Shown one piece after another: positions 23,148 through 58,462 of a stretch of DNA of 64,000 nucleotides (its first letter is position 1; every line of letters starts with the position of its first letter). Made by a program: the position numbers and the translations under genes. This DNA comes from Prevotella sp. (GTDB lineage: Bacteria; Bacteroidota; Bacteroidia; Bacteroidales; Bacteroidaceae), in NCBI GenBank assembly GCA_017475265.1, contig JAFVFY010000079.1, forward strand, positions 14,119 through 78,118. Reading direction: 5' to 3'. The notes below the pieces were generated by a model. The model made no database searches, had not been told where the DNA came from, and saw only the letters and a program-made list of their open reading frames with translations.

Positions 23148-26100
23148 ATGAAACAAACGAGAATCATTCTTCTACTCATTTCCGTAATGAGTTTGGCAAC
23201 GACAAGTGCAAATGCATACGATGCACTGATTAATGGAATTTATTACAATCTATACGGAGGTTACAATACAGCTGAGGTTGTGATGGGTAATCCCTATGAG
23301 GACAGACCGTATGAGCAAGTTGAGGAAAATTACTATCACGGCGATATTGTCATCCCTGAAAAAGTAAAGTATAATGGCATTACTTACACAGTAACTACTA
23401 TAGGAAAGTGGGCTTTCTTCAACTCAAAGCTGAACTCCGTAACGATACCACACTCAATAAAGAAAATAGAAAGCAATGCTTTTGAGTGGTGCAACAGTCT
23501 GTCGGCAGTATATATCTCAGATTTGGAGGCTTGGTGCAACATAGAGTTTGCCAAGGATATTGACTCGGAATATCATATCTCGGAATTTGAAGGAAACAAA
23601 TCCAACCCACTTACAATTGCAGGAAATCTGTATTTAGGAGGTATTCGTATTACAGATTTAATAATACCAGCCTCAGTTAAGGAGATTGGCTTTTCTCAGT
23701 TTAGCGGTATCAATGTCAACTCTGTGGTCATTCCAAGCAGCATAACTTCAATAGGAGACTACGCTTTCTTCAAAGGTAATGTGGGAAAGGTCGAGGTGCC
23801 TGAATCGATAAAGAGATTGGGAGACTTTTCTTTCGCATGGTGTACGCTGTCTTCCATCAATTTGCCAGAAAGCATTGCCATCTATGGCATTGCCACATTC
23901 AGTAATGCCAGTCTTACATCTATATCACTGCCCAAGAACATGAAATCCATTCCTAACAGAACGTTTGAGGGCAGTATGTTGCAATCTATCGACATTCCTG
24001 AAGGTATGAAGCAAATCGGAGAAATGTCGTTTGCCAGTTGTCAATATTTGAAAAAAGTCAACATTCCCACGACTGTTGATTCCATTGGCTATTACGCATT
24101 CGCAGGATGTAGTGCCCAAATCCATGTCAAAGATTTGGCAGCATGGTATGAGATTGGTTTTTGGGATTCTTTTTATGAAGCGACTTATTCGTTGTGGGTC
24201 AATGGAGAGGAAACGGTAAACTTGGTTATCCCTTCCGAAATCAAACATATAAAAAACGGAACCTTCCAAGGCTGTGCGAGCATCCGTAGCGTCAAGATAC
24301 ATGATGATGTGAAATCTATTGGTAGCAGTTCTTTTTATGGCTGCAAAAATCTTCAAACCGTTTCTATCGGAAATGGAGTACCTGCTATCGGAAGTTCTGC
24401 TTTCAGTGACTGTGTGAGTCTTAGCAATGTAGAAATAGGAGAAAATGTTGCCACTATAGGTGTAAGTGCATTTCAGAGATGTGTAGAATTGCCGTCCATA
24501 ACCATACCAGAAAGTGTTACTCGTATAGAGTCGTATGCTTTCGAAGGCTGTACGAAGTTGACTACCGTTAATTTGCCGAATAGCATACAATTCGTTGGTA
24601 CAGGAGCATTTTATGATACTGCATGGTACTTGAATCAAGATAATGGCTTGATGTACTTAGGCAATGTGGCATATAAATACAAGGGTGTGATGCCTGATAG
24701 TACAACCATCAACATAAAGGATGGCACTGTCGCTATTGCGGAGGGAGCTTTCAAAGGTTACCGTAATCTGGTTTCTGTGAATATGCCCAACAGTCTTGAA
24801 TCCATAGGACTAAATGCGTTCGAAGGCTGTAGTGGTCTGACTTCAGTTTCAATTCCTGGCAAAGTGGCGACAATAGGTGCAAATGCATTCCAGTATTGTG
24901 AGAGTTTGAGCAATGTGAATCTGGAGCATGGCGTGACAGAAATAGGAATATATGCATTTAACAATTGTAGCAGCTTAACTTCTATTATTATTCCTGGAAG
25001 TGTGACGAAAATAGGCAATAACGCTTTCAATGGATGTGGGCTAACGGAAGTGAAAATATCTGAAGGGGTTTCTTCGATTGGTAGTAGGGCATTCGCCTAC
25101 TGTAACAATCTGTCTTTGGCAGAGTTTCCTAACAGCATCATATATGTTGGCATGGATGCATTTTACAAGACAGCCTGGCTTGACAGTCAACCAGACGGAC
25201 TAATCTACATTGGGAGGGTAGCTTATAAATACAAGGGTGAAATGCCTGACAATACAAATATAGAAATCAAAAAAGGAACAAAGGCCATATCAGGTGCAGC
25301 ATTCAATGGTTGTATAGGTATGACTTCTATACATATTCCAAGTAGCATCACTTCGATTGGCTCTTCATATAGTGACTGCAAGAAATTGTCAGCAGTATAT
25401 ATAACAGATTTAAAGGCTTGGTGCAACATTGAGTTTGAAGGCAATCCTTTGCAAGCTGCTCATCACTTATACCTCAATGGAGAAGAAATAAAGAATCTGG
25501 TTATACCAGAGGGAATTTCGTCAATAGGGAAAAACTCCTTTGCAGGTGGCAGTGGCTTCACGTCAGTTGCCATGCCCAGTGGCATCACATCTATTGGTGA
25601 ACGTGCCTTTTTCAACTGTTCTGGCTTAGCAAACATACAATTCTCGGAAAATCTTACAAACATAGAGCCGTATGCATTCTGTGGATGCAGCAGCTTAGAA
25701 TCTTTGTCTTTACCTAATGGGCTCCAATCAATTTCGTTTGAAGCTTTTAAAAATTGTTCTGGGCTTAAGACTATTAGTATTCCTAAGACCGTAACAGAAA
25801 TTTCGAGTTGGGCCTTTTCCCGTTGTGGAAATCTGGAAAATGTCATATCGCTTATTGAGTCTCCCTTCGAGATTTATGAGACTGTGTTTTCTGTTGAAAG
25901 CGAGCCATCATTAGTGTTTACTACAGCAAAGCTATATGTTCCCAAGGGCACAAAGGAGAAATATGAAACAACAAAAGGATGGAACAAATTTGAGCATATC
26001 ATAGAAATAATTCCTACAGGTGATAAATGCGCAACTCCCACCATCGCCTACGAACAGGGCGAGCTGGTGTTCAGCTGCGAGACTGAGGGCGCACAGTTCG

Positions 26101-26387
26101 TGAGCGAGATAAAGGTGGCCGACGCCAAGAAGGGCAATGAAGCCCGAGTAACGCTTGTCCCGAACTACGAAATCACCGTCTATGCCACCGCCGACGGCTA
26201 TGCGGACAGCGACGTGGCCACTGCCACCATCGGATGGCGCAACGGCACACCCGTCATGGAGGGTTTCAGTAACATAGACCTCGGAAAGGCTAATAATTCT
26301 TGCGACGTTAACGGTGACGGCTCCATCGATGTGGCCGACATCGCCACCATCATCAGCGAGATGGCGGCGCGAGCAAGGAAACAATGA
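23148..26387 (+). CDS. BspA-like leucine-rich repeat (LRR_5) surface protein with a C-terminal single dockerin repeat
   Basis: Signal peptide; many xxIPxSVTxIGxxAFxxCxxL repeats; ends CDVNGDGSIDVADIATIISEMAARARKQ. Confidence 0.9.
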   Translation: MKQTRIILLLISVMSLATTSANAYDALINGIYYNLYGGYNTAEVVMGNPYEDRPYEQVEENYYHGDIVIPEKVKYNGITYTVTTIGKWAFFNSKLNSVTIPHSIKKIESNAFEWCNSLSAVYISDLEAWCNIEFAKDIDSEYHISEFEGNKSNPLTIAGNLYLGGIRITDLIIPASVKEIGFSQFSGINVNSVVIPSSITSIGDYAFFKGNVGKVEVPESIKRLGDFSFAWCTLSSINLPESIAIYGIATFSNASLTSISLPKNMKSIPNRTFEGSMLQSIDIPEGMKQIGEMSFASCQYLKKVNIPTTVDSIGYYAFAGCSAQIHVKDLAAWYEIGFWDSFYEATYSLWVNGEETVNLVIPSEIKHIKNGTFQGCASIRSVKIHDDVKSIGSSSFYGCKNLQTVSIGNGVPAIGSSAFSDCVSLSNVEIGENVATIGVSAFQRCVELPSITIPESVTRIESYAFEGCTKLTTVNLPNSIQFVGTGAFYDTAWYLNQDNGLMYLGNVAYKYKGVMPDSTTINIKDGTVAIAEGAFKGYRNLVSVNMPNSLESIGLNAFEGCSGLTSVSIPGKVATIGANAFQYCESLSNVNLEHGVTEIGIYAFNNCSSLTSIIIPGSVTKIGNNAFNGCGLTEVKISEGVSSIGSRAFAYCNNLSLAEFPNSIIYVGMDAFYKTAWLDSQPDGLIYIGRVAYKYKGEMPDNTNIEIKKGTKAISGAAFNGCIGMTSIHIPSSITSIGSSYSDCKKLSAVYITDLKAWCNIEFEGNPLQAAHHLYLNGEEIKNLVIPEGISSIGKNSFAGGSGFTSVAMPSGITSIGERAFFNCSGLANIQFSENLTNIEPYAFCGCSSLESLSLPNGLQSISFEAFKNCSGLKTISIPKTVTEISSWAFSRCGNLENVISLIESPFEIYETVFSVESEPSLVFTTAKLYVPKGTKEKYETTKGWNKFEHIIEIIPTGDKCATPTIAYEQGELVFSCETEGAQFVSEIKVADAKKGNEARVTLVPNYEITVYATADGYADSDVATATIGWRNGTPVMEGFSNIDLGKANNSCDVNGDGSIDVADIATIISEMAARARKQ

Positions 26388-32285: not shown

Positions 32286-35108
32286 ATGAAAAAGACATTT
32301 GCATTGCGGAGGGCATCGGCAATTCTCGTTACCATGCCCTTTATGTTGTTGGCCACAGAAAGCCAGGCCCAACAGCTGAAAGTAGACATCAGTATCACCA
32401 ACCGACAGGCACAGGAGGTACAGGAGCCAGGCTACGCGCTCTGGCAAGTCGCACAGGGTAAGAGCACATCGATGGAGTTTCCTGTTGAAGGGGATTTGCA
32501 ATCCCCGATTACCTGTACGCTATCGTGCCCCGCCGATGCCGACTACGAGATTCGCACGGGTTGGAGCAAGACCTACATCCAGAACGCCACATATAAAGAG
32601 CAGAACGGCCGACTGACCTTCGATGGTATCAGCCTCGACCCCCGCACCTACGGTTCATTCACGTTGAAGATAAAAGGTCTGCCCGCCGGCCAGCACACCA
32701 TCCAGACTTATCATAACTGCTGGGAGAATCCCACAGCCTTCTACGCCGCCCCGATGACTGTCAAACTAAACGGCGAGGTTGTGCATGAGAATGTCGTGCC
32801 CTCGTTCCTCCAGTCCGTGGCTGCCAACGCCACCCTGCTCGTCACCCCCTTCACCATTGCTGTCGACGGTTCCCCCGTCGAGCTGGAATTCATCACCTCG
32901 GACAGCAACCCCGGCATTGCGCCGAGCGGTTCGCCCGCGAGCAACGAGTTCCAGGCCCCACTGCTCAACGGCTTCGAGCTGAACACCGCCGATATCACCG
33001 TGCAGGCCAAGGAACCCTACCCCGCCAACAACGACATGCACGCCAACTGCGACGGTGGCAGCGTCACGCTGAGCTGGACACCAGCATCGACCAGTGTCAA
33101 GGAGCACCGACTCTATTTCGGTAAGAGTGAGGATAACCTCACGCAACTGGCTACCATAGTGGGCAACGCTTCCGAGCGTTGCGAACACACCGTAGACGGT
33201 CTCTACAGTGGCAACACCTACTACTGGCGCGTCGACGAGGTGACAGCCGCCCCCGAGGGAGGGGAGATCGTCAACGAGGGCACCGTGTGGTGCTTCAAAC
33301 CCCGTCAGCTGGCCTTCCCCGAGGCCGAGGGCTACGGCCGTTTCGCCATCGGCGGACGAGGCGGAAGCGTCTACCACGTGACGAGCCTCTCCAATGAGAA
33401 CGTTCCCGGCACACTGAAGTACGGACTGCTGCTCGACGAGCCCCACACCATCGTGTTCGATGTCTCCGGCATCATCGACCTGGGCTTCGAGGCCATTTTC
33501 ACCAAGCCCTATATCACCATCGCCGCCCAGACAGCCCCCGGCAAGGGCATCTGTCTGAAGGCTTCCAACATCAACATCGGCTCCGACAACATCTGCCGCT
33601 TTCTCCGCTTCAAGCGCGGCCTGGGGGTCTACGGCGAGAACACCGGCAACGCTATGGGCATGAGCGGCGCCGACCACAGCATCGTGGACCATTGCACAGC
33701 CGCCTGGGGCACCGACGAGACCGTCTCCGGCCGCGGAGCCAAGAACATCACCTTCCAGTACAGCGGCATCTTCGAGGCACTGGGCATCACTGGTCACAAG
33801 AACTACAGCGACGGCACTAACCACGGCTATGCCGCCACCATCGACGGACAGAAAGGCTCCTGGCACCACAACCTGCTGCTCAACTGCGAGGGCCGCAACT
33901 GGAGCATGGGCGGTGGCATGGACGGACAGAACCGGCCCATCGGCGGACTTGATCTATTTAATAATGTGTGCTACAACTGGCACAACCGCACCACCGACGG
34001 CAACTGCCACGCCGTGAACTTCGTGAACAACTATTATAAAATGGGACCCGACACGAGCAAGAAGCTGCTTTTCACCCAGGACTTCGAGGGTGGCATAGCC
34101 GACGACGGCATAGACCAGGCCTACATCAACGGCAACATCCGCGAGAACAAAGACCACTCGCTGACTATCCAGACGAAGGCGCTCGACAAGAAGGGTGACA
34201 TCTTCAACGCCCGAGCCAGCAACGGCGGCAAGCTGCCCACCACCTACGAGTATCAGGTCACTGAGCCTCTCTTTGAGAGCTTCGCCACCATCCACACGGC
34301 CAAAGAGGCCATGAAGATTGTCACCTCCTACGGCGGTGCCATCATGCCCATGCGCGACGAGCAGCACCAGCGCGTCATCCGCGAGACCCTCGATGGCACC
34401 TGGACCTACCGTGGCTCGAAGAGCAACATCCGAGGCGAGATAGACAACGAGGCTGATATCACCGACGCTGCCAACGGCGGCTGGGAGGAATGGCCCGAGG
34501 AGACCCGCGCCGAAGACTGGGACACCGACCTGGACGGTATGCCCGACTGGTGGGAGCACATCACAGGCAGCGACCCGCAGACCGCCAACCACAACGACGA
34601 CCCCGACGGTGACGGCTGGACACTCTTGGAGGACTACCTGGAGTTCATGGCCCACCCCTACGTCATCATCGGCCTTGCCAGCAGCGCAAGCATCGACCTG
34701 AAGGAGCACTTTACCGGCTTCTACGGACAGAATGGCAAGACTGTCACACCCACCTACACCGTCGACTATATAGAAAACCACTTCTCACCCTCCATCGATG
34801 GTGACATTCTCACAGTCAAGTCTTTCAACACGCCCTGCACAGGCTATTGCGTGGTACGGGTCAACGATGGCGAGACCACCTTCACCCAACGCTTCGGCGT
34901 GGCCGTCACCCACGACTTCCAGCCCCTAAAGGGTGATGTCAATGGCGACGGCACGGTCAACGTGGCCGACATTGCCGCCGTCATTGATGTGATGGCAGGG
35001 AATGTAACGCTAGGAAGCGTTACCCACTACGCCGACGTCAACGACGACGGGACGGTAGATGTAGCCGACATCGCAACCATCATCTCCATTATGGCAGGAG
35101 AAGAATAA
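32286..35108 (+). CDS. Secreted pectate lyase (PL1-type) with accessory domains and C-terminal dockerin
   Basis: AFPEAEGYGRFAIGGRGG, AAQTAPGKGI, DHCTAAWGTDE, DTDLDGMPDWWE; dockerin GDVNGDGTVNVADI...DVNDDGTVDVADI at 34932-35108. Confidence 0.9.
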   Translation: MKKTFALRRASAILVTMPFMLLATESQAQQLKVDISITNRQAQEVQEPGYALWQVAQGKSTSMEFPVEGDLQSPITCTLSCPADADYEIRTGWSKTYIQNATYKEQNGRLTFDGISLDPRTYGSFTLKIKGLPAGQHTIQTYHNCWENPTAFYAAPMTVKLNGEVVHENVVPSFLQSVAANATLLVTPFTIAVDGSPVELEFITSDSNPGIAPSGSPASNEFQAPLLNGFELNTADITVQAKEPYPANNDMHANCDGGSVTLSWTPASTSVKEHRLYFGKSEDNLTQLATIVGNASERCEHTVDGLYSGNTYYWRVDEVTAAPEGGEIVNEGTVWCFKPRQLAFPEAEGYGRFAIGGRGGSVYHVTSLSNENVPGTLKYGLLLDEPHTIVFDVSGIIDLGFEAIFTKPYITIAAQTAPGKGICLKASNINIGSDNICRFLRFKRGLGVYGENTGNAMGMSGADHSIVDHCTAAWGTDETVSGRGAKNITFQYSGIFEALGITGHKNYSDGTNHGYAATIDGQKGSWHHNLLLNCEGRNWSMGGGMDGQNRPIGGLDLFNNVCYNWHNRTTDGNCHAVNFVNNYYKMGPDTSKKLLFTQDFEGGIADDGIDQAYINGNIRENKDHSLTIQTKALDKKGDIFNARASNGGKLPTTYEYQVTEPLFESFATIHTAKEAMKIVTSYGGAIMPMRDEQHQRVIRETLDGTWTYRGSKSNIRGEIDNEADITDAANGGWEEWPEETRAEDWDTDLDGMPDWWEHITGSDPQTANHNDDPDGDGWTLLEDYLEFMAHPYVIIGLASSASIDLKEHFTGFYGQNGKTVTPTYTVDYIENHFSPSIDGDILTVKSFNTPCTGYCVVRVNDGETTFTQRFGVAVTHDFQPLKGDVNGDGTVNVADIAAVIDVMAGNVTLGSVTHYADVNDDGTVDVADIATIISIMAGEE

Positions 35109-35137
35109 CAAGGCAGAGAGAAATACCTCACAGCGAA

Positions 35138-35175
35138 CAGAGCGTGCCACCTGAAAAAGCAGGGGGCGCGTTCTG
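35138..35175 (+). terminator. GC-rich hairpin after the pectate lyase
   Basis: CAGAGCGTGCCACCTG-AAAAAG-CAGGGGGCGCGTTCTG with G-U pairs. Confidence 0.5.
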
Positions 35176-35295
35176 CTATGTAAACGTTTGCACTAAAATC
35201 ATTAAAGTTTAAAGCATTAGCTAGGGACACCCCAAAAGTAATTTTCTTAATTTTGCCACGAAAAGCGACATTTATTAACTAAAAACAAAAACAAT

Positions 35296-38200
35296 ATGAA
35301 AAGAGTTATTACTATTGCAACAGTATTATTCTGCTTAGTACTGACTGCCAATGCATGGGTCGTCTCGGGTTCAGGTGCCATTCTGAATGGTGAAACCTGG
35401 AACCACACCAGCGAAAAGAACACGATGACAAAGCAGGCTGACGGCACGTGGCAGCTCGTTGTTAGCGATGCCGTGCTCGAAGTTGGCACTACTTATGAAT
35501 GGCTTGTTACCGATGGAACCAATTGGATTAAAAACGGTAACGACAACTACAAGCTCACTGTAAGCGAGACAGCCAAGTACCAGATTACCTTCACTCTCGC
35601 TGCAGACGAGATGAGCGCAATGGCATCGCAAGTAAAGACAGGAGATGCAGGAGCCATCACCCACACCTACAGCATTGCTGGGGAACCCGCTTCGGTCTTT
35701 GGGGCTGAATGGGCAGAGAAAAGCACAGCCACTGACATGACCCTCGGCAACGACGGACTCTACCGATGGACGAAAGCCGACATTGAGCTGGCAAAAAACA
35801 CTAAAATAGCGTTTAAGGTCGTTGTGGACCATTCTTGGGGAGAAAGCTTCCCCTCTGCAAACTACCCTATTACTATCGAGGAAGATGCCAAGTATGACAT
35901 CATCATCACTTTCAATGCCTCGACGAAGGCTGTAGAAGGTTATGCCACGAAGAAGGGTGATGCTGTTATAGAGCAGAACTACGTCATCGCTGGTAGCAGC
36001 ATGGAGCTCTTCGGCGCCGAATGGGACGGCATTGCCGAGGCCAATAAGATGGAGAAACAAGCCGACGGCACATACGCCAAGACCTACTCCAACGTGACAC
36101 TCCCCGAAGGCACTATTGAGTGGAAAGTGGTGCTCAACGGCGTGACATGGATTCCTGACCCAGGCGATAACCTCACTATCTATGTGCCCAGAGATGGAGC
36201 CTACGACGTCATTTTCAACTACAATCCTGACACTCAGACACCTACCTCAACACTCATGCAGGATGGTAAGGTGATTGACGAAAAGCCTATTGTCAAGGGC
36301 GAGGGATGGCCAGCCAATTACGGTGGCGTGATGATGCAGACATTCTACTGGAACTCGTTCGAGGACACCCAATGGCGCACGCTCACCGCACAGGCCGACG
36401 AACTGTCGAAGTACTTCGACATCCTCTGGCTGCCCAACTCGAGCAACTGTAACGTGGCCAACTCCATGGGCTACCTGCCTGTATACTGGCTCGACCACCG
36501 CAGCTCCTTCGGTGCCCGCGAGCGCTACCTTACCGAGCTGATTGCCGCTTACCACGAGCGCGGAACGAAAGTCATCGAGGACGTTGTGCTCAACCACAAG
36601 TCGCCCCTCGGCAAGGATGGTTCCTACATCGACTTCGTCAATGAGAGCAAGACCGTAGACGGCGTCACCTATGAGCTCAACTGGAGCGGAGCCGACATCT
36701 GCCAGAACGATGACGGCGGCTACATCAAGGAACTGGGCTGGGACATTACAGGTGCCGACGACACTGGCGATGACTTCAGTGGTGCACGCGACCTAGACCA
36801 CACCGGCGAGAACGTGCAGAAGAACTGCATGACCTACCTCGACTACCTGCTCAACGGACTGCACTACGACGGTTTCCGCCTCGATATGGTGAAGGGCTAC
36901 TCTCCTGAGTACACCCGTATGTACAACGAACACGCGCAGCCTGAGTTCTGCGTCGGCGAGTACTGGGACGGCTACGACGCCATCATGAACTGGGTGAAGG
37001 GCACGGGCTACACCTCGGCCGCTTTCGACTTCCCCCTGAAGTACGTATTCCGCGATGCATTCGGCAGCGGCGACTGGAGCGCCTTCAACTCGAAGGGTAT
37101 AGCCGGCGACCCCGACAACTGCCGTTACGCCGTGACCTTCGTCGACAACCATGACACCTACGAGAACGAGGGCCGTCTGGTCAACGGTGTGCTCGGTGCC
37201 AACGCCGTCATCCTTGCCATGCCTGGCACGCCCTGCATTTTCCTCAAGCACTGGCAGCGCTACCCCATCGCCATCGGCAACATGATTCTCGCCCGTAAGG
37301 CCGCAGGCATCACCAACCAGAGCCCCATCACTGAGCAGCAGCTTGACGAGGGCAAGGGATATATAATTAAGGTGCAGGGCACCACTGGCTCTGTGCTCGT
37401 GCTCGCAGGAAATCCCACCTACGACACTACGGGCTTCACCAAAATTGCCAGCGGACAGAACTTCGCATATTTCGTCTCTGACAACGTGACCGTCGAGGGA
37501 CTCCAAGAGGGCAACGACGACGAGGAGGCTAAGACCATCACCGTGAACGTGCAGGCCAACGACGCTCCCTACGTCTACGCCTGGGACATGAGCGGCAACC
37601 CAGTACTCGACACATGGCCCGGAACGAAGCTCACCGAGAAGACCACAGCCAAGGACGGTACGGAGTTCTGGACAACAACCTTCGAGAAGGTTCCCGTCAA
37701 CGTCATCTTCAACAACGGCGAGGGCGTACAGACAGCCGACATCCTCAACATCACCCACGACAGCTACTACACCTTCGACCCCGCCAACGAGGACAAGGAG
37801 ACCAACTGGACCGACATCACCTCCAGCTACTACACACCCGTAGTTGACCTGCCCGAGTGCGCCAAGGAGATTCCCGGACACTTCTATGTCTACTTCCAGG
37901 CCAACAAGGACTACGACTCACCCTACGCCTGGGTATGGGGCGAGGAAGGCAAGAGTTTCAACACCGTGACCGAATGGCCCGGCGACAAGATGGTGAAGGC
38001 CGGATACGACAAAGACCAACACGCCGTATGGCTCTGGGATGGAGGTGAACTGAAGGAGGGTGCCGAACTGCCCACCGAGTTGCTCTTCAGCAACCACGGT
38101 TCGCCACAGACCGACAACTTCAAGTTTGTCAACGGCGGCTACTACGACGCTACGGGATTCCTTGCCAGCGTCATCAAGACTTCTGTCAAAGGTGATACCA

Positions 38201-38355
38201 ATGACGACAATGTAGTTGATGTGGCTGACATCGCGACCATCATTACCGTTATGGCCATAGGCACTTACGATGCCAAAGCCGACGTGAATGATGACAAGGT
38301 GGTGGACGTGGCCGACATTTCAAACGTTATCGACATCATGGCTGGTAAAGAGTAA
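35296..38355 (+). CDS. Multimodular GH13 alpha-amylase: three N-terminal beta modules, catalytic domain, two CBM26-like modules, dockerin
   Basis: MQTFYW, DVVLNHK, GFRLDMVKGY, VGEYWD, FVDNHDT; PYVYAW/PYAWVW modules; dockerin at 38191-38355. Confidence 0.92.
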   Translation: MKRVITIATVLFCLVLTANAWVVSGSGAILNGETWNHTSEKNTMTKQADGTWQLVVSDAVLEVGTTYEWLVTDGTNWIKNGNDNYKLTVSETAKYQITFTLAADEMSAMASQVKTGDAGAITHTYSIAGEPASVFGAEWAEKSTATDMTLGNDGLYRWTKADIELAKNTKIAFKVVVDHSWGESFPSANYPITIEEDAKYDIIITFNASTKAVEGYATKKGDAVIEQNYVIAGSSMELFGAEWDGIAEANKMEKQADGTYAKTYSNVTLPEGTIEWKVVLNGVTWIPDPGDNLTIYVPRDGAYDVIFNYNPDTQTPTSTLMQDGKVIDEKPIVKGEGWPANYGGVMMQTFYWNSFEDTQWRTLTAQADELSKYFDILWLPNSSNCNVANSMGYLPVYWLDHRSSFGARERYLTELIAAYHERGTKVIEDVVLNHKSPLGKDGSYIDFVNESKTVDGVTYELNWSGADICQNDDGGYIKELGWDITGADDTGDDFSGARDLDHTGENVQKNCMTYLDYLLNGLHYDGFRLDMVKGYSPEYTRMYNEHAQPEFCVGEYWDGYDAIMNWVKGTGYTSAAFDFPLKYVFRDAFGSGDWSAFNSKGIAGDPDNCRYAVTFVDNHDTYENEGRLVNGVLGANAVILAMPGTPCIFLKHWQRYPIAIGNMILARKAAGITNQSPITEQQLDEGKGYIIKVQGTTGSVLVLAGNPTYDTTGFTKIASGQNFAYFVSDNVTVEGLQEGNDDEEAKTITVNVQANDAPYVYAWDMSGNPVLDTWPGTKLTEKTTAKDGTEFWTTTFEKVPVNVIFNNGEGVQTADILNITHDSYYTFDPANEDKETNWTDITSSYYTPVVDLPECAKEIPGHFYVYFQANKDYDSPYAWVWGEEGKSFNTVTEWPGDKMVKAGYDKDQHAVWLWDGGELKEGAELPTELLFSNHGSPQTDNFKFVNGGYYDATGFLASVIKTSVKGDTNDDNVVDVADIATIITVMAIGTYDAKADVNDDKVVDVADISNVIDIMAGKE

Positions 38356-38363
38356 CACAGTCA

Positions 38364-38397
38364 CCCCTGGCTCATCCAATAAGGGCTGAGCCAGGGG
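38364..38397 (+). terminator. Intergenic stem-loop (terminator or mRNA-stabilising)
   Basis: CCCCTGGCTCA / TGAGCCAGGGG 11-bp stem without a clean U tract. Confidence 0.6.
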
Positions 38398-38443
38398 AAT
38401 TATTGAAACATCTTTTTATTTTATAACTTAAATTACAACGATT

Positions 38444-39406
38444 ATGAAAAAACTATTACTAACAATGTTCGTGGCCATGATGACCATAACGTCACAGGCC
38501 GCCATCACCGTCTATGTGCAGGCCGAAAAGGCTCCCTACCTCTGGGCTTGGGGAGCTCCAGGAAACATCTTTGCCGACGAGGGATGGCCCGGACACCTAC
38601 TCACCGACAAGAAAACCGTGAAGAACAACGAGACCAGTGAGGACGTAGAGTTCTGGTACTACACCTTCGACGAAAGCATCACGCTCATCAACTACCTCTT
38701 CGATGACGGCGGCAACGAGCTGCATCAGGACGTGAAGCAGACAAAGGACATCAGCGGAGTGACCACCGACCGCTACTTCACCTACGACGGCGCCAGCTCT
38801 TTCGAAGACGTCACCGAGCAGTATGGCGGCGAAATTCCCGACGCCGAGGTAACATCGCTAATCCTCGTGGGCAACCACAACGCCTGGTCGGGCGACGACC
38901 CGTACACCTTCACCGTTTTGGAAGGCGGAAAGACCTTCAAGGGAACCATTACCATTGATCTCACCGACGTGGAGATTCCCGACAACCTCTGGCAGTTCAA
39001 GGTACGCCCCAACGCCCAGGGATGGGTGGGTTACTACGACGATGCCACCATCACGACTCCTGAGTGGTGCTATCAGGCACGCACCGATGGCAACTTCGAG
39101 ATTGACCTCGAGCATGATGCCGTCCTGGCCAACGGCCCGAAGTTCAAAATCGATGCCCAATGGGATGGCGGCAGAGACTATGAGTGGGGATGGAAATTCA
39201 CCTTCGCACTCTCTACCGGCGATGATCCTATTCCTTCTGTTCCCGGCGATGTCAACGGCGACGGTACTGTCGACGTGGCTGACATCTCCGCCATCATCAG
39301 TGTTATGGCTGGTACGGCAACATACCCCGCAGCTGATGTTAACGGTGACAATACAGTGGACGTGGCTGACATCTCAAATGTTATTTCCATCATGGCAGGT
39401 AACTAA
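38444..39406 (+). CDS. Non-catalytic starch-binding (CBM26-like) protein with C-terminal dockerin
   Basis: Signal peptide; VYVQAEKAPYLWAWG; dockerin GDVNGDGTVDVADI...DVNGDNTVDVADI at 39245-39406. Confidence 0.8.
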   Translation: MKKLLLTMFVAMMTITSQAAITVYVQAEKAPYLWAWGAPGNIFADEGWPGHLLTDKKTVKNNETSEDVEFWYYTFDESITLINYLFDDGGNELHQDVKQTKDISGVTTDRYFTYDGASSFEDVTEQYGGEIPDAEVTSLILVGNHNAWSGDDPYTFTVLEGGKTFKGTITIDLTDVEIPDNLWQFKVRPNAQGWVGYYDDATITTPEWCYQARTDGNFEIDLEHDAVLANGPKFKIDAQWDGGRDYEWGWKFTFALSTGDDPIPSVPGDVNGDGTVDVADISAIISVMAGTATYPAADVNGDNTVDVADISNVISIMAGN

Positions 39407-45255: not shown

Positions 45256-45756
45256 ATGCAAAGAAAACTATTAGTTTCCGCGCTGCTCTTGCTGTTGGCC
45301 TTTGTCGGGGCAAGGGCGCAGACTGACGAGCAGAAATCGCTGTGTGCTGTGGTTGAGCAGACCGATGGCACAACAACGGAGTATATGCTCAATGAACTGC
45401 CACAAATCACCTATGGTTCCAATGTTGTGAAACTCGCCACGAGCTTCACAACTGTAGAGCTACAGTCCTCGAAAGTGGCCCGTATCTATATGGCAGAGAA
45501 AGGCTCTGCGCAGGGAATAAAAGCCACGAAATCATCACAGGCAGTTGCACATGTGGATGTCACCCCAACTGCCGTTACTGTCACGGGGCTTGAGCCGGGC
45601 AGTGATGCCGCTCTTTACACTGCCGACGGACGTTGTCTGAAAGCCACTACCGCCGCATCCGACGGTACTCTCTCACTGCCCATGCCGACAAAATCGCAAG
45701 GTGTCCTTATCGTAAAAACAAAGAATCAATCATTTAAAATCATCAATAAACAATGA
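45256..45756 (+). CDS. Small secreted protein with a T9SS type A-like C-terminal domain
   Basis: Signal peptide; ALYTADGRCLK...QGVLIVKTKNQSFKIINK. Confidence 0.75.
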   Translation: MQRKLLVSALLLLLAFVGARAQTDEQKSLCAVVEQTDGTTTEYMLNELPQITYGSNVVKLATSFTTVELQSSKVARIYMAEKGSAQGIKATKSSQAVAHVDVTPTAVTVTGLEPGSDAALYTADGRCLKATTAASDGTLSLPMPTKSQGVLIVKTKNQSFKIINKQ

Positions 45757-46478
45757 AAAAGTTATTTACCCTTATAGCTGCCGCCATGCTGTGCGTGGGA
45801 GCGCAGGCACAGTCAGTAAACATTCACTTAACGAACGGAAAATCTATCGGTTTTTCCGGCAGTGAGGTTCAGTATGTAGATTTTAACGAGACCAATGCCG
45901 CTTCATCAGGTACTTTCTGGATCAAATTCAAGGGGTGTTCTGTTTATTGGGCTAGTAGAAACGTCGGAGCTGAGAACGATTACGACTTCGGTAAATTTTT
46001 CACATGGGGAGAAGCAGATGGTTTCTTTCCGATATCATACGATGGAGATTACAATTTCTACCCTCAAAATCGTGAATTTAAAGAGCAGAATATAACTTCA
46101 TTTGCAGATGGTGCCCAGAAAAACTGGGGTAATCCCTGGACTGTGCCATCAGTAAAGGACGTTAATGATCTGTTAGACAACACCCAAAGTTATTGGACTA
46201 CTTATCAAAACACTGGCATTACTGGTAGGTGGTTTGTCGGAACAAATGCAGAAACGAACAAGCCTGATTCTATTTTCTTCCCTGCTGCATCCCAGTTGAT
46301 TTATGACAAATGGACGGAAGTAGGAAGATTTGGATGCTACTGGGCTAAAGATCAGGCAGACAAGGAACATGGCGGTGGTTTATTCTTTGGCACTGAACCA
46401 GATAATTCATATAGGATTTATAATGCTGAACTTAAGTGGCATGGACTGCCTATACGTGCCGTCCGCAGTACAAAATAA
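45753..46478 (+). CDS. Secreted protein with a C-type-lectin-fold-like (DUF1566/FSMP-like) domain
   Basis: Signal peptide; YWASRNVGA, FTWGE, SIFFPAA, GCYW...GLPIRAVR; overlaps the upstream stop. Confidence 0.65.
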   Translation: MKKLFTLIAAAMLCVGAQAQSVNIHLTNGKSIGFSGSEVQYVDFNETNAASSGTFWIKFKGCSVYWASRNVGAENDYDFGKFFTWGEADGFFPISYDGDYNFYPQNREFKEQNITSFADGAQKNWGNPWTVPSVKDVNDLLDNTQSYWTTYQNTGITGRWFVGTNAETNKPDSIFFPAASQLIYDKWTEVGRFGCYWAKDQADKEHGGGLFFGTEPDNSYRIYNAELKWHGLPIRAVRSTK

Positions 46479-52272: not shown

Positions 52273-52375
52273 TTTGAAAACAGCGAAATAATAGACATTA
52301 GCAAAGCTATTTCGGAAAATATTTTGTTATTTCGACTATTATTTGTATCTTTGCACGCATAAATCATCAAAGGAA

Positions 52376-53899
52376 GTGAGAAGAACGGTCTATACATGCC
52401 TGGTGTGCCTCTTTGCACTGGCATCAACGGCTCAGATAGAACTGTGGACGGAGGCGCAGCTTTCGGTCTCCGATGGAACTACACCGCTATGGCTCAATGC
52501 CAACAAATACGGCCTCAGCTCGCTTGACAAGACCAACGGTTATGCCCGTATCGGAGCCTTCCGTCCTCTGGAAACGGACTCTGCACGCCGCTGGGGTTGG
52601 TCGGCAGGAGCCGATGTAGCCGTGGCAGGTGGCTACACCAGCACGCTCATCGTGCAACAGGCCTATGCCGAGCTTCGCTGGCTGAAAGGACTGCTCACCG
52701 TGGGCAGCAAAGAGCAGCCGCTACAGCTGAAAGACCAACAGTTGAGCAGCGGTTCACAGTCACTGGGCATCAACGCACACCCCGTGCCATCCGTGCGACT
52801 GGAACTGCCTGAATACTGGGACATACCAGGACTGAACCACTGGCTGGGGCTGAAAGGTCACATCGCCTACGGCATAACGACCGACACGCGGTGGCAGAAA
52901 GACTTCACCGCCCAGCGGTCGAACTACACAGAGAACGTGCGACTGCACACCAAGGCTGGCTACCTGCGCATTGGACAGCCACAACGGCCGCTCACCGTGG
53001 AGCTGGGAGTAGAGATGGGCTGCCAGTATGGCGGCACGTCACACATCTTCGACCATGGAAACGAGCAGGTAATAGAGAACGAAGGTGGGCTGAAAGGTGC
53101 CTGGCACGCCCTGATACCCGGTGGCGAGGAGGTGCTGGAGCGCGAAATCGAGTATAAGAACACATCGGGAAACCACGTGGGAAGCTATGTCATGCGTGTG
53201 AACTACGACCAGCCGTCATGGGGCGTCTCCGTCTACGCCGACCACGTATTCGATGACCAGTCGCAGATGTTCTTCTACAGCAACAACAGCTACGGACAAA
53301 ACGGCAAGAGTTGGACTGAGAAGGGCGACAAATACCTCGTGTTCGATCTCAAGGATATGATGCTCGGCCTCGAGGTGAGGGTGAAGGGCTGTCCATGGCT
53401 GGAGAAGTTTGTGGCCGAATACCTCTACACGAAATACCAAAGCGGCCCCATCTACCACGACCATTCGGAGCATCTGCTCGACCACATCTGCGGCATCGAC
53501 GACTATTACAACCACTACATTTTCGTTGCCTGGCAGCATTGGGGACAGGTGATGGGTAACCCGCTATACCGCTCGCCGCTATATAATGACACGGGCGACA
53601 TCATCATAGTCGACAACCGCTTCACCGCCTGGCACCTGGCCGCTACAGGTGCGCCCCTGAAGGGGCTGCGTTACCGCCTGATGTGTACCTTCCAACACGG
53701 ACTGGGCACTTACAGGAAACCTTTCAGCAACCCCCGCAACAATGTGAGCATCTTGGCCGAGGCGGCATACTCCTTCCCTTCAATATCAGAACCTCTGAAG
53801 GGCGTGACCGTGAAGGGAGCCTTAGGCTTCGACCGCGGACCACTGCTGGGCAACAACACGGGATTCCAGCTGACTGTAGCTAAGACCCTGAACCTCTGA
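52376..53899 (+). CDS. Capsule assembly Wzi-family outer-membrane protein
   Basis: Signal peptide; TPLWLNANKYGLSS, LSSGSQSLGINAHP, RLHTKAGYLRIG, GNHVGS, DDYYNH; GTG start assumed downstream of TATCTTTG. Confidence 0.75.
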   Translation: MRRTVYTCLVCLFALASTAQIELWTEAQLSVSDGTTPLWLNANKYGLSSLDKTNGYARIGAFRPLETDSARRWGWSAGADVAVAGGYTSTLIVQQAYAELRWLKGLLTVGSKEQPLQLKDQQLSSGSQSLGINAHPVPSVRLELPEYWDIPGLNHWLGLKGHIAYGITTDTRWQKDFTAQRSNYTENVRLHTKAGYLRIGQPQRPLTVELGVEMGCQYGGTSHIFDHGNEQVIENEGGLKGAWHALIPGGEEVLEREIEYKNTSGNHVGSYVMRVNYDQPSWGVSVYADHVFDDQSQMFFYSNNSYGQNGKSWTEKGDKYLVFDLKDMMLGLEVRVKGCPWLEKFVAEYLYTKYQSGPIYHDHSEHLLDHICGIDDYYNHYIFVAWQHWGQVMGNPLYRSPLYNDTGDIIIVDNRFTAWHLAATGAPLKGLRYRLMCTFQHGLGTYRKPFSNPRNNVSILAEAAYSFPSISEPLKGVTVKGALGFDRGPLLGNNTGFQLTVAKTLNL

Positions 53900-54949: not shown

Positions 54950-57247
54950 TTACTTAACAATGACTTTCTTTCCGTCGATAATAAACACACCCTTGCTGGC
55001 TTTCAGCATCTTCTGTCCGTTCAGGTTGTAAACCTCCGTCTGTTTATTGCTGATTAACGTACCTTCGATGTTGGTAGTAGAGCCATCGCTGAAGGCGAGA
55101 CGTGAAGGAGTAGATCCAGTAATCTCGAAGTAAGCACGGAAGCCCTTCATATAGGCCTCTTCGTTACCCTTGGCAATCTTGGCCTTATCGGTTACGCCAT
55201 ACTTACCGGCCATACCCGGGGCATCGATAGGTGCAAACGTTCCGATGAAGGAAGCACCGTCTTCTTTCGTCACTTTTCCAGCCTCAGCTGCAATTTCTAC
55301 GTCAGTGAGTTCCTTTTCAGAGAAAGCAGTCTCAACGTAAACCACGTATGGAGTGCAAGTCTCAAGGCCACCGCTCACGAGGTCGAGCTTCAGAATGTTC
55401 TCACCTTCAACGTTTTCATAGCCGGTGAAAGCGTAAACCTTGGCACCCTCGCCGAAGAACTCAGCCACATCGTCGATGGCGAAGGGCAGACATACCGTGT
55501 TGAAGCCAGCACGGAAGTTACGCTTCAGCGTCACAGTGTTGTAAGTGCCGGCCACGATAGGCTCAGAGGAGGTCTCGTCGAGCGTGTACTTCGTGACAAA
55601 CTTAACGGTCAGTTCAATGTCGTCTGCCTTGCTGCTCTTGGAGCTGGCGGTGGTGGTCTTAAGGTTGGTCAGGGTGACGGTGCCGTCGGCAGCAAACTCA
55701 TCGCCGGCAGTCAGGGTGATGGTGAACAGCACGCCGTCGTTGCCCTTGATGCCTCCCAGATAAGTGATGTTGCCTGTTCCCTCACGGTAGGTGGGGTCAG
55801 AAGCCAAACGGTCGCTCTTGGTCAGCGTGGCAGTGATGCCCTCAGGCAGTGTCAGCGTGGCCCCGAAGCCTGCGCGTGCGCGGTCGTTAGTCAGCGTCAC
55901 ATCCACGTCGACAGACTCACCGGCGGCCAGCTTAACCTCTGTCTCACTGAAGGCGAAGGCGATGTTGTCGGTACCCTTCTTCACGTTGAGGGAAATCGAG
56001 GCAGGGTTGGCAGTGATGCTGTGTGAAGAAGGTGTGGTGGCCTTCAGGTTCGACAGAATCAGAGTGCCGTCGGCAAAATCATCGCCGGCAGTTAGCTTCA
56101 GCGTGAACAACACGCCGTCCTTGCCGCTGATACCGCCAAGGTAATTGATGTTGCCATTTTCCTCATTATAGTTAGGAGCAGCAGCCAGACGGTCGCTCTT
56201 CACCAGTTCGGCGGTGACACCGCTGGGCAGCGTCATCGTTGCCTGGAAACCGCTCAAGGTACAGCCGTTGGTCAGCGTCACAGGCACCTCAACAGACTCA
56301 CCGGGAATAAGGTCGATGTCACCCTCGAAGTCGAAAGCGAACGAAGCCGTCTCTGTCTCGGGCTCAGCCTCGGGAGCGATGACAAGGGTAATGTCATCGA
56401 ACTCGTAAGGATCCTCTATGGTCTCATCTGGGTCGTAAGCCACAATATTCTTTAATGTTACTGTACCCTCACCGCTGAAACTATCTTCAGCTTTAATGGT
56501 AACTGTGAACAGAGTACCGACGTTTGCAGCAATCTCTTCAATGGTCACCTTCTTAGTACGTTTAGTATAAGTAGCACCAGTTACACCTTCAATACTTAAT
56601 CCCTCGGATGTAGCAAAAAGTGCATCAAAGCCAACCATTTTCACATTATCCTGCATAATAACCTCTACTTCAGCTGTCTTACCAGCTGCGAGGCTGAGCG
56701 TTGCGGGCGAGAAAACGATGGGTCCTGTGGTCACGGGTTCGGGAGTCACTGTAGCTGCCTCGCAGGTCACGGTAGCGTTGCCAGTCGTGGCAGCTTCCTC
56801 TGTGCCGTCGCCGTCGGTGTGCTTCACCGTGAAGTCAGAGAGCGCGATGGTCTTTGTGCCGTCAGCCAGATCGTCTGCGGCTTTCACCTTGATGGTAGCG
56901 ATGGCGCCCGACGTGCCGGTGATGGCATTCTTCACGAGGCTTGTAAGGCGGAACAGACCCGTACTCAAGTTCATGTTGATAGAGAATCCGCTGGTGCGGC
57001 TTGTCGTGGCCACCTGTGCCATGCCGCTGGAAACCACCACCTCGATACCTTCAGGCATGTCGATGGTGCCATTGACATAGTAGATATCGCTGGCATCGCT
57101 GGTGAAATCCACCTCGATGGTTTTCTCCTCGCCAGCCTTGATGCTAAAGTCGCTGATGCTCACGTTGTGGTCAGCGACGGCCATTCCTGCTTGGCCCAGG
57201 AAGAGGGCCAGCAGGAATGACAGGCGTGAAATAAACTTGTTGTTCAT
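54950..57247 (-). CDS. Scaffoldin-like secreted protein: four cohesin-like domains, C-terminal domain and T9SS-type tail
   Basis: Signal peptide; four ~120-140 aa repeats of F.I.AGE...V.V.L.N...GF.A...LP.G separated by P/E/T linkers; tail VYNLNGQK...KGVFIIDGKKVIVK. Confidence 0.75.
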   Translation of the reverse strand: MNNKFISRLSFLLALFLGQAGMAVADHNVSISDFSIKAGEEKTIEVDFTSDASDIYYVNGTIDMPEGIEVVVSSGMAQVATTSRTSGFSINMNLSTGLFRLTSLVKNAITGTSGAIATIKVKAADDLADGTKTIALSDFTVKHTDGDGTEEAATTGNATVTCEAATVTPEPVTTGPIVFSPATLSLAAGKTAEVEVIMQDNVKMVGFDALFATSEGLSIEGVTGATYTKRTKKVTIEEIAANVGTLFTVTIKAEDSFSGEGTVTLKNIVAYDPDETIEDPYEFDDITLVIAPEAEPETETASFAFDFEGDIDLIPGESVEVPVTLTNGCTLSGFQATMTLPSGVTAELVKSDRLAAAPNYNEENGNINYLGGISGKDGVLFTLKLTAGDDFADGTLILSNLKATTPSSHSITANPASISLNVKKGTDNIAFAFSETEVKLAAGESVDVDVTLTNDRARAGFGATLTLPEGITATLTKSDRLASDPTYREGTGNITYLGGIKGNDGVLFTITLTAGDEFAADGTVTLTNLKTTTASSKSSKADDIELTVKFVTKYTLDETSSEPIVAGTYNTVTLKRNFRAGFNTVCLPFAIDDVAEFFGEGAKVYAFTGYENVEGENILKLDLVSGGLETCTPYVVYVETAFSEKELTDVEIAAEAGKVTKEDGASFIGTFAPIDAPGMAGKYGVTDKAKIAKGNEEAYMKGFRAYFEITGSTPSRLAFSDGSTTNIEGTLISNKQTEVYNLNGQKMLKASKGVFIIDGKKVIVK

Positions 57248-57250
57248 TAT

Positions 57251-57306
57251 TGTCAATTTTCAATCTTCAATTTTCAATCTTCAATTTTCAATCTTCAATC
57301 TTCAAT
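57251..57306. repeat. (T/C)TTCAAT heptamer tandem repeat (8 units) between the cohesin genes
   Basis: tgtcaat tttcaat cttcaat tttcaat cttcaat tttcaat cttcaat cttcaat. Confidence 0.92.
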
Positions 57307-57313
57307 CGAAGAA

Positions 57314-58462
57314 TCACTTCTGAGTGCCGTCGATGTTAAGGCCCATCGAGAGGTTGAAGGCGGCCTGTGCGTCGGCAATGTCAATCTCACCGTCACCGTT
57401 GACGTCATAGATGGCAAACATCGGGTCGTTGGGGTCGGTGGGATAGGTGTTGTCGAGCAGGGCATCGATCAGTGTGTCCACATCGCCATCGTCCACCTCG
57501 CCGTCTCCGCCGAAGTCACCGGGAATGGTGGGAATCTCGGGCTCTGCTGCCTTCGTCACGGTGATGGTCACGTCAGCCAGTTCCTGGTTGAGGGCAGTGT
57601 TAGTGCCAATACTCAGCTTCGTGAGCTTGATGGTGCTGCTCTCAGCGATGCCGTCGCCGGCCTTCACCTTGAATGAGAAGATGATGCCCTCTGTGCCGGT
57701 AATCAGCGTGTTGTTGGTAGAGCTGAGGATGAATGCTATTCCATTCGTTCCCTCTTCAAAAGCGAACTCCAGAGGCTCGGGTGTGCGCTCACTGTAGATG
57801 AAATTACCGTCGGGTCCTGGCACGATGGTCAGACCTGCGGGCAGTGTGAGCAGGCCAGAGAAGCCTGTCAGGTTGTCGGCGCCCTCATTGTTGAGCATAA
57901 TGTCAATCTGATACTCCTCACCAACGGTCACCTCCAAGCTCTCAGGGTCAGCGGCGAAGGTACATGTGGAGAGGTCGGGAGCTGGCCCGCGTGTCACCGT
58001 GGTAGTGGCGGTTGCAGCGTCGGCGATGTTTTCTGCGTCGGCATCTGAGATGACGATGTTGGAGAGTTCAATCTGGTATTCGCCCTCAGCGAGCAAGTTG
58101 TTGATGTTGACAGTGAAGGTGAAAACGGCACCTGTTCCTGCATCTACGGCGTTACCGCCGGTCTTGGCGATGCGCAACTTGCCGTCGACCTCAGAGACAT
58201 TCAGCGTGACGCCACGTCCGGACAGACGGTCGGTCTTGGTAATCGACGACTTGTCGATAGTCAGGCCGTAAGGCATCTGGATGTCGAGCTGGAACACGGT
58301 GGCCTCCTTACTATTGTCAAGAATGACGGCCACCTCTTTCTGGTTCTCGTTGTAGGCCAGCGAGAAGTCCTCGATGTAGAGGCTTGCCTGACCGAACGAC
58401 ATGGCCGAATACCCCAGGAAAAGCATGAGGAGCAACGCCATCTTTTTCGTAATCCTATTCAT
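57314..58462 (-). CDS. Adaptor scaffoldin-like protein: two cohesin-like domains and a C-terminal dockerin
   Basis: Signal peptide; LYIEDFSL...VILDN...FQLDIQMPYG; LEVTVGEE...LNN...FSGLLTLPAG; dockerin GDFGGDGEVDDGD...DVNGDGEIDIAD. Confidence 0.75.
   Translation of the reverse strand: MNRITKKMALLLMLFLGYSAMSFGQASLYIEDFSLAYNENQKEVAVILDNSKEATVFQLDIQMPYGLTIDKSSITKTDRLSGRGVTLNVSEVDGKLRIAKTGGNAVDAGTGAVFTFTVNINNLLAEGEYQIELSNIVISDADAENIADAATATTTVTRGPAPDLSTCTFAADPESLEVTVGEEYQIDIMLNNEGADNLTGFSGLLTLPAGLTIVPGPDGNFIYSERTPEPLEFAFEEGTNGIAFILSSTNNTLITGTEGIIFSFKVKAGDGIAESSTIKLTKLSIGTNTALNQELADVTITVTKAAEPEIPTIPGDFGGDGEVDDGDVDTLIDALLDNTYPTDPNDPMFAIYDVNGDGEIDIADAQAAFNLSMGLNIDGTQK

Follow-up and report, generated by a model that had tools for sequence, protein, structure and literature searches.

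Dockerin-tagged enzymes and tailed cohesin proteins in a Prevotella genome: a cohesin–dockerin system with a possible piggy-back route through type IX secretion

The closest described systems are the cellulosomes and amylosomes of Firmicutes, which combine dockerin-tagged enzymes with cohesin proteins, and the secretion system of type IX (T9SS), whose signals act at the C-terminus of the secreted protein. The rumen and the guts of many people are dominated by Prevotella, whose breakdown of fibre and starch is commonly attributed to polysaccharide utilisation loci together with enzymes that T9SS secretes directly. T9SS-linked carbohydrate-active enzymes (CAZymes) have been described in 'Ca. Paraporphyromonas polyenzymogenes' (PMC5831590), and a paper on T9SS and CAZymes stated that Bacteroidetes lack cohesins and dockerins. 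Orphan dockerins have been reported from metagenomes on glycoside hydrolase (GH), carbohydrate-binding module (CBM) and domain-of-unknown-function (DUF) proteins of rumen Prevotella; cohesins of Bacteroidetes were scarce or absent in those reports, which regarded the role of the dockerin as undefined (PMC6487960; PMC7480376). The subject of this study is a 64,000-nucleotide stretch of a Prevotella sp. genome (contig JAFVFY010000079.1 of assembly GCA_017475265.1, positions 14,119 to 78,118; the whole stretch is hereafter called the window), in which four proteins with Sec-type signal peptides end in a dockerin, and two cohesin proteins end in a short tail that resembles a T9SS signal. As judged from sequence, the best explanation would be that the four dockerin proteins are cargo of a display system based on cohesins and dockerins that spans the genome of this diderm Prevotella and is akin to a cellulosome or amylosome. 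On the cargo of this lineage, the dockerin has replaced, module for module, the T9SS-linked export/anchor tail that orthologous enzymes bear elsewhere, with the tail retained on the cohesin proteins. No paper linking Bacteroidota cohesin–dockerin systems to T9SS was found in the literature.

The four cargo proteins of the window, all encoded on the plus strand, are a leucine-rich repeat (LRR) protein, a pectate lyase, a GH13 amylase and a 320-aa protein, and in the translations of their open reading frames (ORFs) the stop follows 1–5 residues past the dockerin. Each N-terminus has a basic residue followed by a hydrophobic stretch and then an AxA-type site, as in Sec-type signal peptides (examples of cleavage sites, marked by a slash, are TESQA/QQ, LTANA/WV, ITSQA/AI and TSANA/YD). 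The pectate-lyase-like enzyme (940 aa, 32286–35108) is composed of a signal peptide, an fn3 domain, a pectate lyase core (PelZ-like, 8.5e-21) and a C-terminal dockerin (34929–35099; 36.9 bits with Pfam Dockerin_1, PF00404, for which the gathering cut-off is 22.9 bits), with the stop 2 aa later (end IISIMAGEE). The GH13 alpha-amylase (1019 aa, 35296–38355) contains a signal peptide, two X25 modules, the GH13 domain, two CBM26 modules (Pfam X25, CBM26 and Alpha-amylase; NF006970, 2.4e-44) and a C-terminal dockerin (38188–38346), also 2 aa from the stop (end IDIMAGKE); this dockerin scored 18.1 bits with the Pfam model, which is below the cut-off, versus 56 bits with a hidden Markov model (HMM) built from the dockerins of the genome. 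The 320-aa protein (38444–39406) comprises a signal peptide, a CBM26-like region and a dockerin (39242–39400; Dockerin_1, 35.3 bits) with the stop 1 aa later (end ISIMAGN). Its residues 21–165 align with residues 748–888 of the amylase, within the CBM26 part, at 34% identity (BLASTP, E 3.6e-15), and it is probably a starch-binding, non-catalytic cargo. The dockerins of these three proteins contain two tandem repeats of ~22 residues, in each of which a DxNxDxxxDxxD calcium loop leads into a helix; the loops are DVNGDGTVNVAD and DVNDDGTVDVAD in the pectate lyase, DTNDDNVVDVAD and DVNDDKVVDVAD in the amylase, and DVNGDGTVDVAD and DVNGDNTVDVAD in the 320-aa protein.

The fourth cargo, a BspA-type LRR protein (1079 aa, 23148–26387; Pfam LRR_5, 6.7e-195), has a signal peptide and no tail, and ends in a half dockerin (26253–26369), in which a single repeat is followed by ARARKQ (end EMAARARKQ). 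The genome-built dockerin HMM aligns to it over HMM positions 30–56 only, and the translation contains one repeat, not the two that define a complete dockerin. Single-repeat half dockerins with a charged extension (MAARAR.Q.E.EE) form a distinct class, represented by the LRR protein (26253–26387) and ~20 other ORFs of the genome, most of which encode BspA-type LRR proteins. The body of the LRR gene (~22–26 kb) has a GC content of 0.40–0.42 and is far more AT-rich than its surroundings (~0.55). These translations bear out the first-pass annotation, which had described four Sec-signal proteins that stop directly after the dockerin, with the ends MAGEE, MAGKE, MAGN and MAARARKQ, and a four-cohesin protein and a giant protein that end in VYNLNGQ and VYNLGG...KKVSK tails.

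Those cohesin proteins are encoded on the minus strand, together with an adaptor. The scaffoldin (768 aa, 54950–57256; Pfam Cohesin, PF00963, 38.9 bits with a cut-off of 24.1 bits, and the genome-built cohesin HMM) is composed of a signal peptide, four cohesins (56783–57154, 56381–56704, 55991–56323 and 55607–55942), a beta-sandwich X domain (55091–55591) and the short tail (54953–55090; tail HMM, 6e-10, 0 aa from the stop). Its C-terminus, EVYNLNGQKMLKASKGVFIIDGKKVIVK, is followed by the stop and reads VYNLNGQ...GVFIIDGKKVIVK. The adaptor (382 aa, 57314–58462) has a signal peptide, two cohesins (58004–58372 and 57560–57943; 86 and 91 bits with the genome cohesin HMM, 19.2 bits and thus below cut-off with Pfam Cohesin), a divergent dockerin (57344–57523; Dockerin_1, 25.7 bits) and no tail. 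The giant protein, of which the C-terminal 1802 of 2445 aa lie in the window (58590–64000) and for which the full length was taken from the genome, contains a dockerin (59160–59342; Dockerin_1, 24.6 bits), a cohesin (58746–59093; cohesin HMM, 90 bits) and a longer variant of the tail (58593–58730). This tail was read directly from the sequence; it was part of the seed alignment of the tail HMM, yet is absent from the listed matches of that HMM. The C-terminus, VYNLGGKLMNGIRKGVNIIRRADGTVEKKVSK, again directly precedes the stop and reads VYNLGG...KKVSK. A profile of 20 cohesin modules matches PDB entry 5N5P_A, deposited as 'putative cellulosomal scaffoldin protein', with an E-value of 1.1e-6. 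The X domain (~170 aa, with the motifs NTVCLPF...PY.VYV...GFRAYFE) lies ahead of the tail not only in the scaffoldin but also in dozens of metagenome proteins of 600–1340 aa; its AlphaFold2 (AF2) model has a predicted local distance difference test (pLDDT) score of ~95, and Foldseek found no match for it in the PDB.

The arrangement seen in the window extends over the genome, a 4.75-Mb, 99%-complete assembly in which the window lies on contig C115. The searches used three HMMs: one for dockerins, with its seed taken from the window, one for cohesins, with its seed taken from the scaffoldin, and one built for the C-terminal tails. Pfam Dockerin_1 gave 123 matches and the window-seeded HMM 117 ORFs; the distance from the end of the dockerin to the stop is at most 25 residues in 97 complete ORFs, and 104 dockerin ORFs contain no cohesin. 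Cohesins were found in ~21 proteins, with ~29 modules between them. The tail HMM gave 123 matches, of which 107 belong to complete ORFs and lie no more than 8 aa from the stop; the N-termini of these 107 ORFs were classified as signal peptidase I (SPI)-like in 71, ambiguous in 27 and without signal peptide in nine. The 104 dockerin ORFs without a cohesin include none with a tail, versus ~9.7 expected under independence among ~1,100 signal-peptide-like ORFs (P = 2e-5). This is in agreement with the mutual exclusivity of C-terminal dockerin and tail on cargo for which the first-pass annotation had proposed a genome-wide check, and the common co-occurrence that it had named as evidence to the contrary was not seen. 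In each of the four ORFs where dockerin and tail do occur together, a cohesin separates the two (Fisher P = 3e-5), so the exclusion is not a mere positional conflict. The tail is present on 14 of the ~21 cohesin proteins, 13 of which have a single cohesin, and several consist of a signal peptide, a cohesin and a tail alone (219–226 aa). The other seven have a dockerin without a tail, and three of them contain two cohesins. In ~12 tail-less proteins the dockerin is N-terminal or internal; a Cthe_2159-type protein and a CBM77-containing pectate lyase belong to this group. N-terminal dockerins lie at C9:17501-20479, C128:30732-33092 and C129:12770-15322 (contig:positions), among them those of the Cthe_2159-type beta-helix protein and the CBM77 pectate lyase. 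We take both families to be known from Firmicute cellulosomes, which would hint at a transfer of whole dockerin proteins from Firmicutes.

When close homologs of the cargo enzymes are compared, it is apparent that they end in a dockerin or in a tail, never in both. The best 120 proteins for the amylase (50–100% identity, the cluster of the query itself included) comprise 20 with a dockerin, 98 with a tail, two that are truncated and none with both modules. Among the best 120 homologs of the pectate lyase, 24 have a dockerin, 13 the short tail, and most of the remaining 83 a longer relative of it (REFFTLDGK...EVYLMK.TD..G....KIIKN). Within the genome, a tailed paralog exists for 39 of 91 dockerin-protein bodies. 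In a tandem trio on contig C44, the proteins run in parallel up to ENSEESFTG.FEAQ and then continue either into a dockerin or into TTGIS and the tail, with the junction exactly at the start of the tail. A CTD-like (C-terminal domain-like) hit before the dockerin of C44:16369-19665 was considered as a C-terminal signal and rejected; it is an internal DUF3244-like Ig domain, which also precedes the tail in the paralog of this protein. Homologs, in-genome paralogs and the C44 boundary thus indicate that the same enzymes are addressed by either tail or dockerin, and that the dockerin occupies the place of the export/anchor tail.

The tail is ~35–48 aa long and lies at the extreme C-terminus of signal-peptide proteins. 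The most telling evidence for a link to T9SS is its phyletic profile: in a 101-genome sample of the family, 65 of 67 SprA-positive genomes contain the tail, versus 4 of 34 SprA-negative ones (Fisher 5e-19), and three of those four have a single match. The tail follows SprA within one genus (g3) as well, with 10 tails in the SprA-positive genome and none in either SprA-negative one. A profile–profile comparison by hhalign of 87 tails with 10 canonical CTDs of the same genome (probability 76%, E 2.2e-5) would fit such a link; its 27 columns pair the conserved stretches in the centre and at the C-terminus ('vYDLqGRrv' and 'kGiYI'), with ~14 aa deleted. Two tandem PorU paralogs (C99:8174-14331) differ in their ends, the first having a canonical TIGR04183 CTD and the second a tail of the short/longer type, and one homolog with the longer tail is named T9SS C-terminal target protein by NCBI. 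On these grounds we treat the tail as a putative truncated T9SS sorting signal that standard models overlook, without assigning it to TIGR04183. This short tail is abundant across the family, and several genomes contain at least 66 matches. One of these (G070, genus g10) has no SprA at E ≤ 1e-30, although SprA is present in three of its congeners; the likely cause is an assembly gap or a masked stretch, and if the absence is real, this genome would be a counter-example to the link between tail and T9SS.

The T9SS genes SprA, PorM and PorU were found in the genome. No secretin was found in the genome search; there is thus no type II secretion system (T2SS), which was rejected as a route for the cargo. 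Lipoprotein export was likewise rejected: in their crude profile the signal peptides of the cargo match those of the tail proteins, the heuristic flagged 20 cases as possible signal peptidase II substrates, which is the same fraction as among tail proteins, and no convincing lipobox was found on the cargo with this heuristic. In the flagged cases the Cys is located within the hydrophobic core and before the AxA site, which makes lipoprotein export unlikely. A duplicated T9SS component specific to dockerin-rich genomes was also considered and rejected, as the tandem PorU pair occurs in this genome only; of 24 other genomes, 22 have a single PorU match, one has two fragments on separate contigs and one has none.

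As a matter of topology, cargo and carrier either meet in the periplasm and exit together, or the cargo exits alone. Under either option the dockerin is most likely the export determinant, because it is the sole feature common to ~100 unrelated cargo proteins. The most economical route would be piggy-back export on tailed cohesin carriers, to which we assign a probability of roughly 40%. Cargo and cohesin carriers would reach the periplasm via Sec, in line with the signal peptides observed on them, and the dockerin would bind the cohesin there with the assistance of calcium. The tail of the carrier would then draw the folded complex through the SprA translocon, after which PorU would cleave the tail and fix the carrier to the surface, as suggested by the T9SS biology of P. 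gingivalis and F. johnsoniae. Further assembly could take place outside, on adaptors with two cohesins and a dockerin and on the four-cohesin scaffoldin. T9SS translocates folded proteins, and hitchhiking is established for Tat (twin-arginine translocation) and for peroxisomal import (PMC9251779). The presence of a single cohesin on 13 of the 14 tailed cohesin proteins leans towards such binding-based co-export, and the N-terminal and internal dockerins of the ~12 tail-less proteins lean towards a binding tag, which they would fit better than a C-terminal signal. The full proposition, that T9SS exports non-covalent complexes and that the dockerin tag carries ~100 enzymes and adhesins through SprA on a few cohesin carriers with ~40-aa tails, is put forward tentatively, at somewhat lower odds than the route as such.

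Several points weigh against piggy-back export. To our knowledge, hitchhiking has never been shown for T9SS, and no report of it was found in the literature. The genes for cargo and carriers are unpaired: only 4 of the 104 dockerin genes have a cohesin gene at a distance of 5 kb or less. Dedicated cargo–carrier gene pairs were considered as a general rule and rejected, as the 3–4 of 104 within 2–5 kb are about the background for large ORFs. With ~100 dockerin ORFs and ~29 cohesin modules, the carriers would need to be made in large excess. The four-cohesin scaffoldin and the adaptors lean towards assembly outside the cell, which they seem to suit better, and a four-cohesin scaffoldin loaded with 100-kDa enzymes looks too bulky for one passage through the translocon. 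The proposed localisation of cargo and carrier, and their translocation, are read from sequence. The tails themselves elude the curated models TIGR04183 and PF18962, with cut-offs of 23 and 27 bits: those of the window were missing from the genome search with TIGR04183 at E ≤ 0.1, and when they were scanned alone, one reached 14 bits and the other had no match to this model. Curated Pfam and NCBIfam models gave only sub-threshold matches when tried on the tails, those of homologs included. The AF2 model of the tail is a beta-meander of ~30 aa (pLDDT 83–93) and not a seven-strand CTD sandwich. In the AF2 model of X domain plus tail (pLDDT 89.7), the linker before the tail is disordered (pLDDT below 50), and a Foldseek search of the PDB with the models of the tail and of X domain plus tail returned nothing below E 0.09 and no CTD match. 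The label 'T9SS-like' that the first-pass annotation gave to the tails draws support from their co-occurrence with SprA and not from the curated thresholds, and it stays an inference. Its suggestion that the dockerin is a hitchhiking export or anchoring tag, or itself a sorting signal, is supported in part, by exclusivity, the tailed cohesins, the T9SS genes and the module swap; as mechanisms, both piggy-back translocation and a dockerin that acts as a signal have the standing of proposals.

A somewhat unlikely alternative is that the cargo proteins cross the outer membrane on their own, with the dockerin or another shared feature recognised by T9SS or by another outer-membrane route, and that cohesin–dockerin assembly takes place only outside the cell, as in Gram-positive cellulosomes. 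The unpaired genes, the excess of dockerins over cohesins and the four-cohesin scaffoldin with its multi-tier adaptors, all difficult for piggy-back export, would fit such a scheme, and so would the position of the dockerin, within 25 aa of the C-terminus in 97 ORFs, where T9SS signals act. However, the dockerin is a helical calcium-binding module, and we know of no T9SS signal that resembles one. The ~12 tail-less proteins with N-terminal or internal dockerins would not be served by a C-terminal signal, the genome has no secretin that could provide another route, and no extra T9SS component distinguishes dockerin-rich genomes, the PorU duplication being confined to this one.

The distribution of the system bears on a less probable alternative, namely that there is no dedicated export: the cargo would be periplasmic, or would be released by vesicles or lysis and meet surface cohesins of its own or neighbouring cells later, or the dockerins would serve in another calcium-dependent role. 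This genome has 74 strong dockerin matches, and 60 other genomes of the genus mostly have 0–2; five of these have at least seven (31, 15, 10, 9 and 7). All 15 genomes of the family with at least three dockerins contain SprA (P = 0.002), which argues against this alternative; single dockerin-like modules also occur in SprA-negative relatives, as this alternative would allow. In 32 genomes hand-picked for high or low dockerin count, cohesins were found in nearly all dockerin-rich genomes and mostly not in dockerin-free ones. Loci from seven genera (L002–L012) contain dockerin–cohesin–tail, cohesin–tail and cohesin–dockerin architectures, all of which are also seen in this genome. The system is a lineage-restricted, recurrent trait of rumen- and gut-type Prevotella and their relatives, with this genome as the extreme case. 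The cargo has a Sec signal only and no known outer-membrane route, and Bacteroidota shed vesicles abundantly, both of which would suit passive release; but the homologs of the same enzymes bear the export tail, which places their ancestral location outside the cell, and enzymes with CBM26, X25 and CBM77, which bind starch and pectin, act on polymers too large for the periplasm. Cargo in the lumen of vesicles would, moreover, be on the wrong side of the membrane for surface cohesins.

It is very improbable that the tail is another C-terminal module, such as a surface-attachment or glycan-binding hairpin, and that the exclusivity reflects competition for the C-terminus: the sub-threshold scores with TIGR04183 and PF18962 and the AF2 model without CTD-type sandwich or PDB match would fit, but the co-occurrence with SprA, the 76% profile–profile match, the invariably terminal position on signal-peptide proteins, the tailed PorU paralog, the NCBI name of a longer-tail homolog and the coexistence of dockerin and tail when a cohesin lies between them do not.

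Two further observations concern neighbouring genes in the window. A Wzi-like outer-membrane protein (Caps_assemb_Wzi, 5.5e-9; 52343–53899, plus strand) is encoded convergently with the end of the cohesin operon. At 45256–46478 (plus strand), a 166-aa protein has little besides its signal peptide and a C-terminus that is CTD-like (LYTADGRCL...GVLIVKTKNQSFKIINKQ), and its stop overlaps the start of a gene for a tail-less 241-aa signal-peptide protein that ends in GLPIRAVRSTK; the two genes may possibly be another carrier/partner pair.

If piggy-back export is correct, it would constitute the first case of a hitchhiker mechanism in T9SS, and a Gram-negative gut bacterium would possess a modular mode of export and display in which one signal serves many cargo proteins. 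It raises a testable question about outer-membrane transport, namely whether T9SS can carry hitchhikers, and if co-export is real, a 60-aa tag would be a simple means by which Bacteroidota could be made to display or secrete folded proteins of any kind.

Like Firmicute cellulosomes and amylosomes (Ruminococcus flavefaciens ScaA/B/C/E; the Ruminococcus bromii amylosome), the system described here combines many dockerin-tagged enzymes and binding proteins with cohesin scaffoldins, cohesin–dockerin adaptors and single-cohesin anchors. The likeness to the amylosome extends to a GH13 amylase with CBM26 and a non-catalytic starch-binding dockerin protein, and that to cellulosomes to the match of the cohesin profile with 5N5P. 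However, the host is a diderm member of Bacteroidota with SprA, PorM and PorU, the anchor is a T9SS-linked tail and not an S-layer homology domain or sortase motif, and most tailed cohesin proteins have a single cohesin. Sec-secreted components end in the periplasm here, so that, unlike in Firmicutes, a further outer-membrane step is needed. With the T9SS type A CTD cargo (P. gingivalis RgpB, F. johnsoniae SprB and ChiA) the system shares a Sec signal and a C-terminal sorting module on glycanases and adhesins, as well as the co-occurrence of the tail with SprA; the tail end motif G(I/L)YI.NGKKV.VK also resembles what we take to be the KVIVK end of RgpB. In contrast to that cargo, the tail has ~35–48 aa and not 70–100, it fails the cut-offs of the curated HMMs, and the enzymes lack it and carry a dockerin in its stead. 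Since TIGR04183 and PF18962 miss the tail, counts of Prevotella T9SS cargo based on those models are probably too low, and T9SS secretomes of Prevotella may be under-counted with standard models.

Hitchhiker export is exemplified by the Tat co-translocation of signal-less subunits (HybOC, DmsAB and PaoABC), peroxisomal piggy-back import and the T2SS export of assembled oligomers. By analogy, a folded partner without its own signal would ride non-covalently on a signal-bearing partner in Prevotella; in contrast to the dedicated subunit pairs of those systems, the carrier would be a generic cohesin adaptor that serves ~100 cargo proteins via a standard tag. Compared with the reports of orphan dockerins, the cohesin partners, their tails and the exchange of tail for dockerin have been identified here. 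In summary, the system would add to a diderm surface a cellulosome-style layer of plugs and sockets that is anchored by T9SS, with the plug taking the place of the export signal on ~100 proteins.

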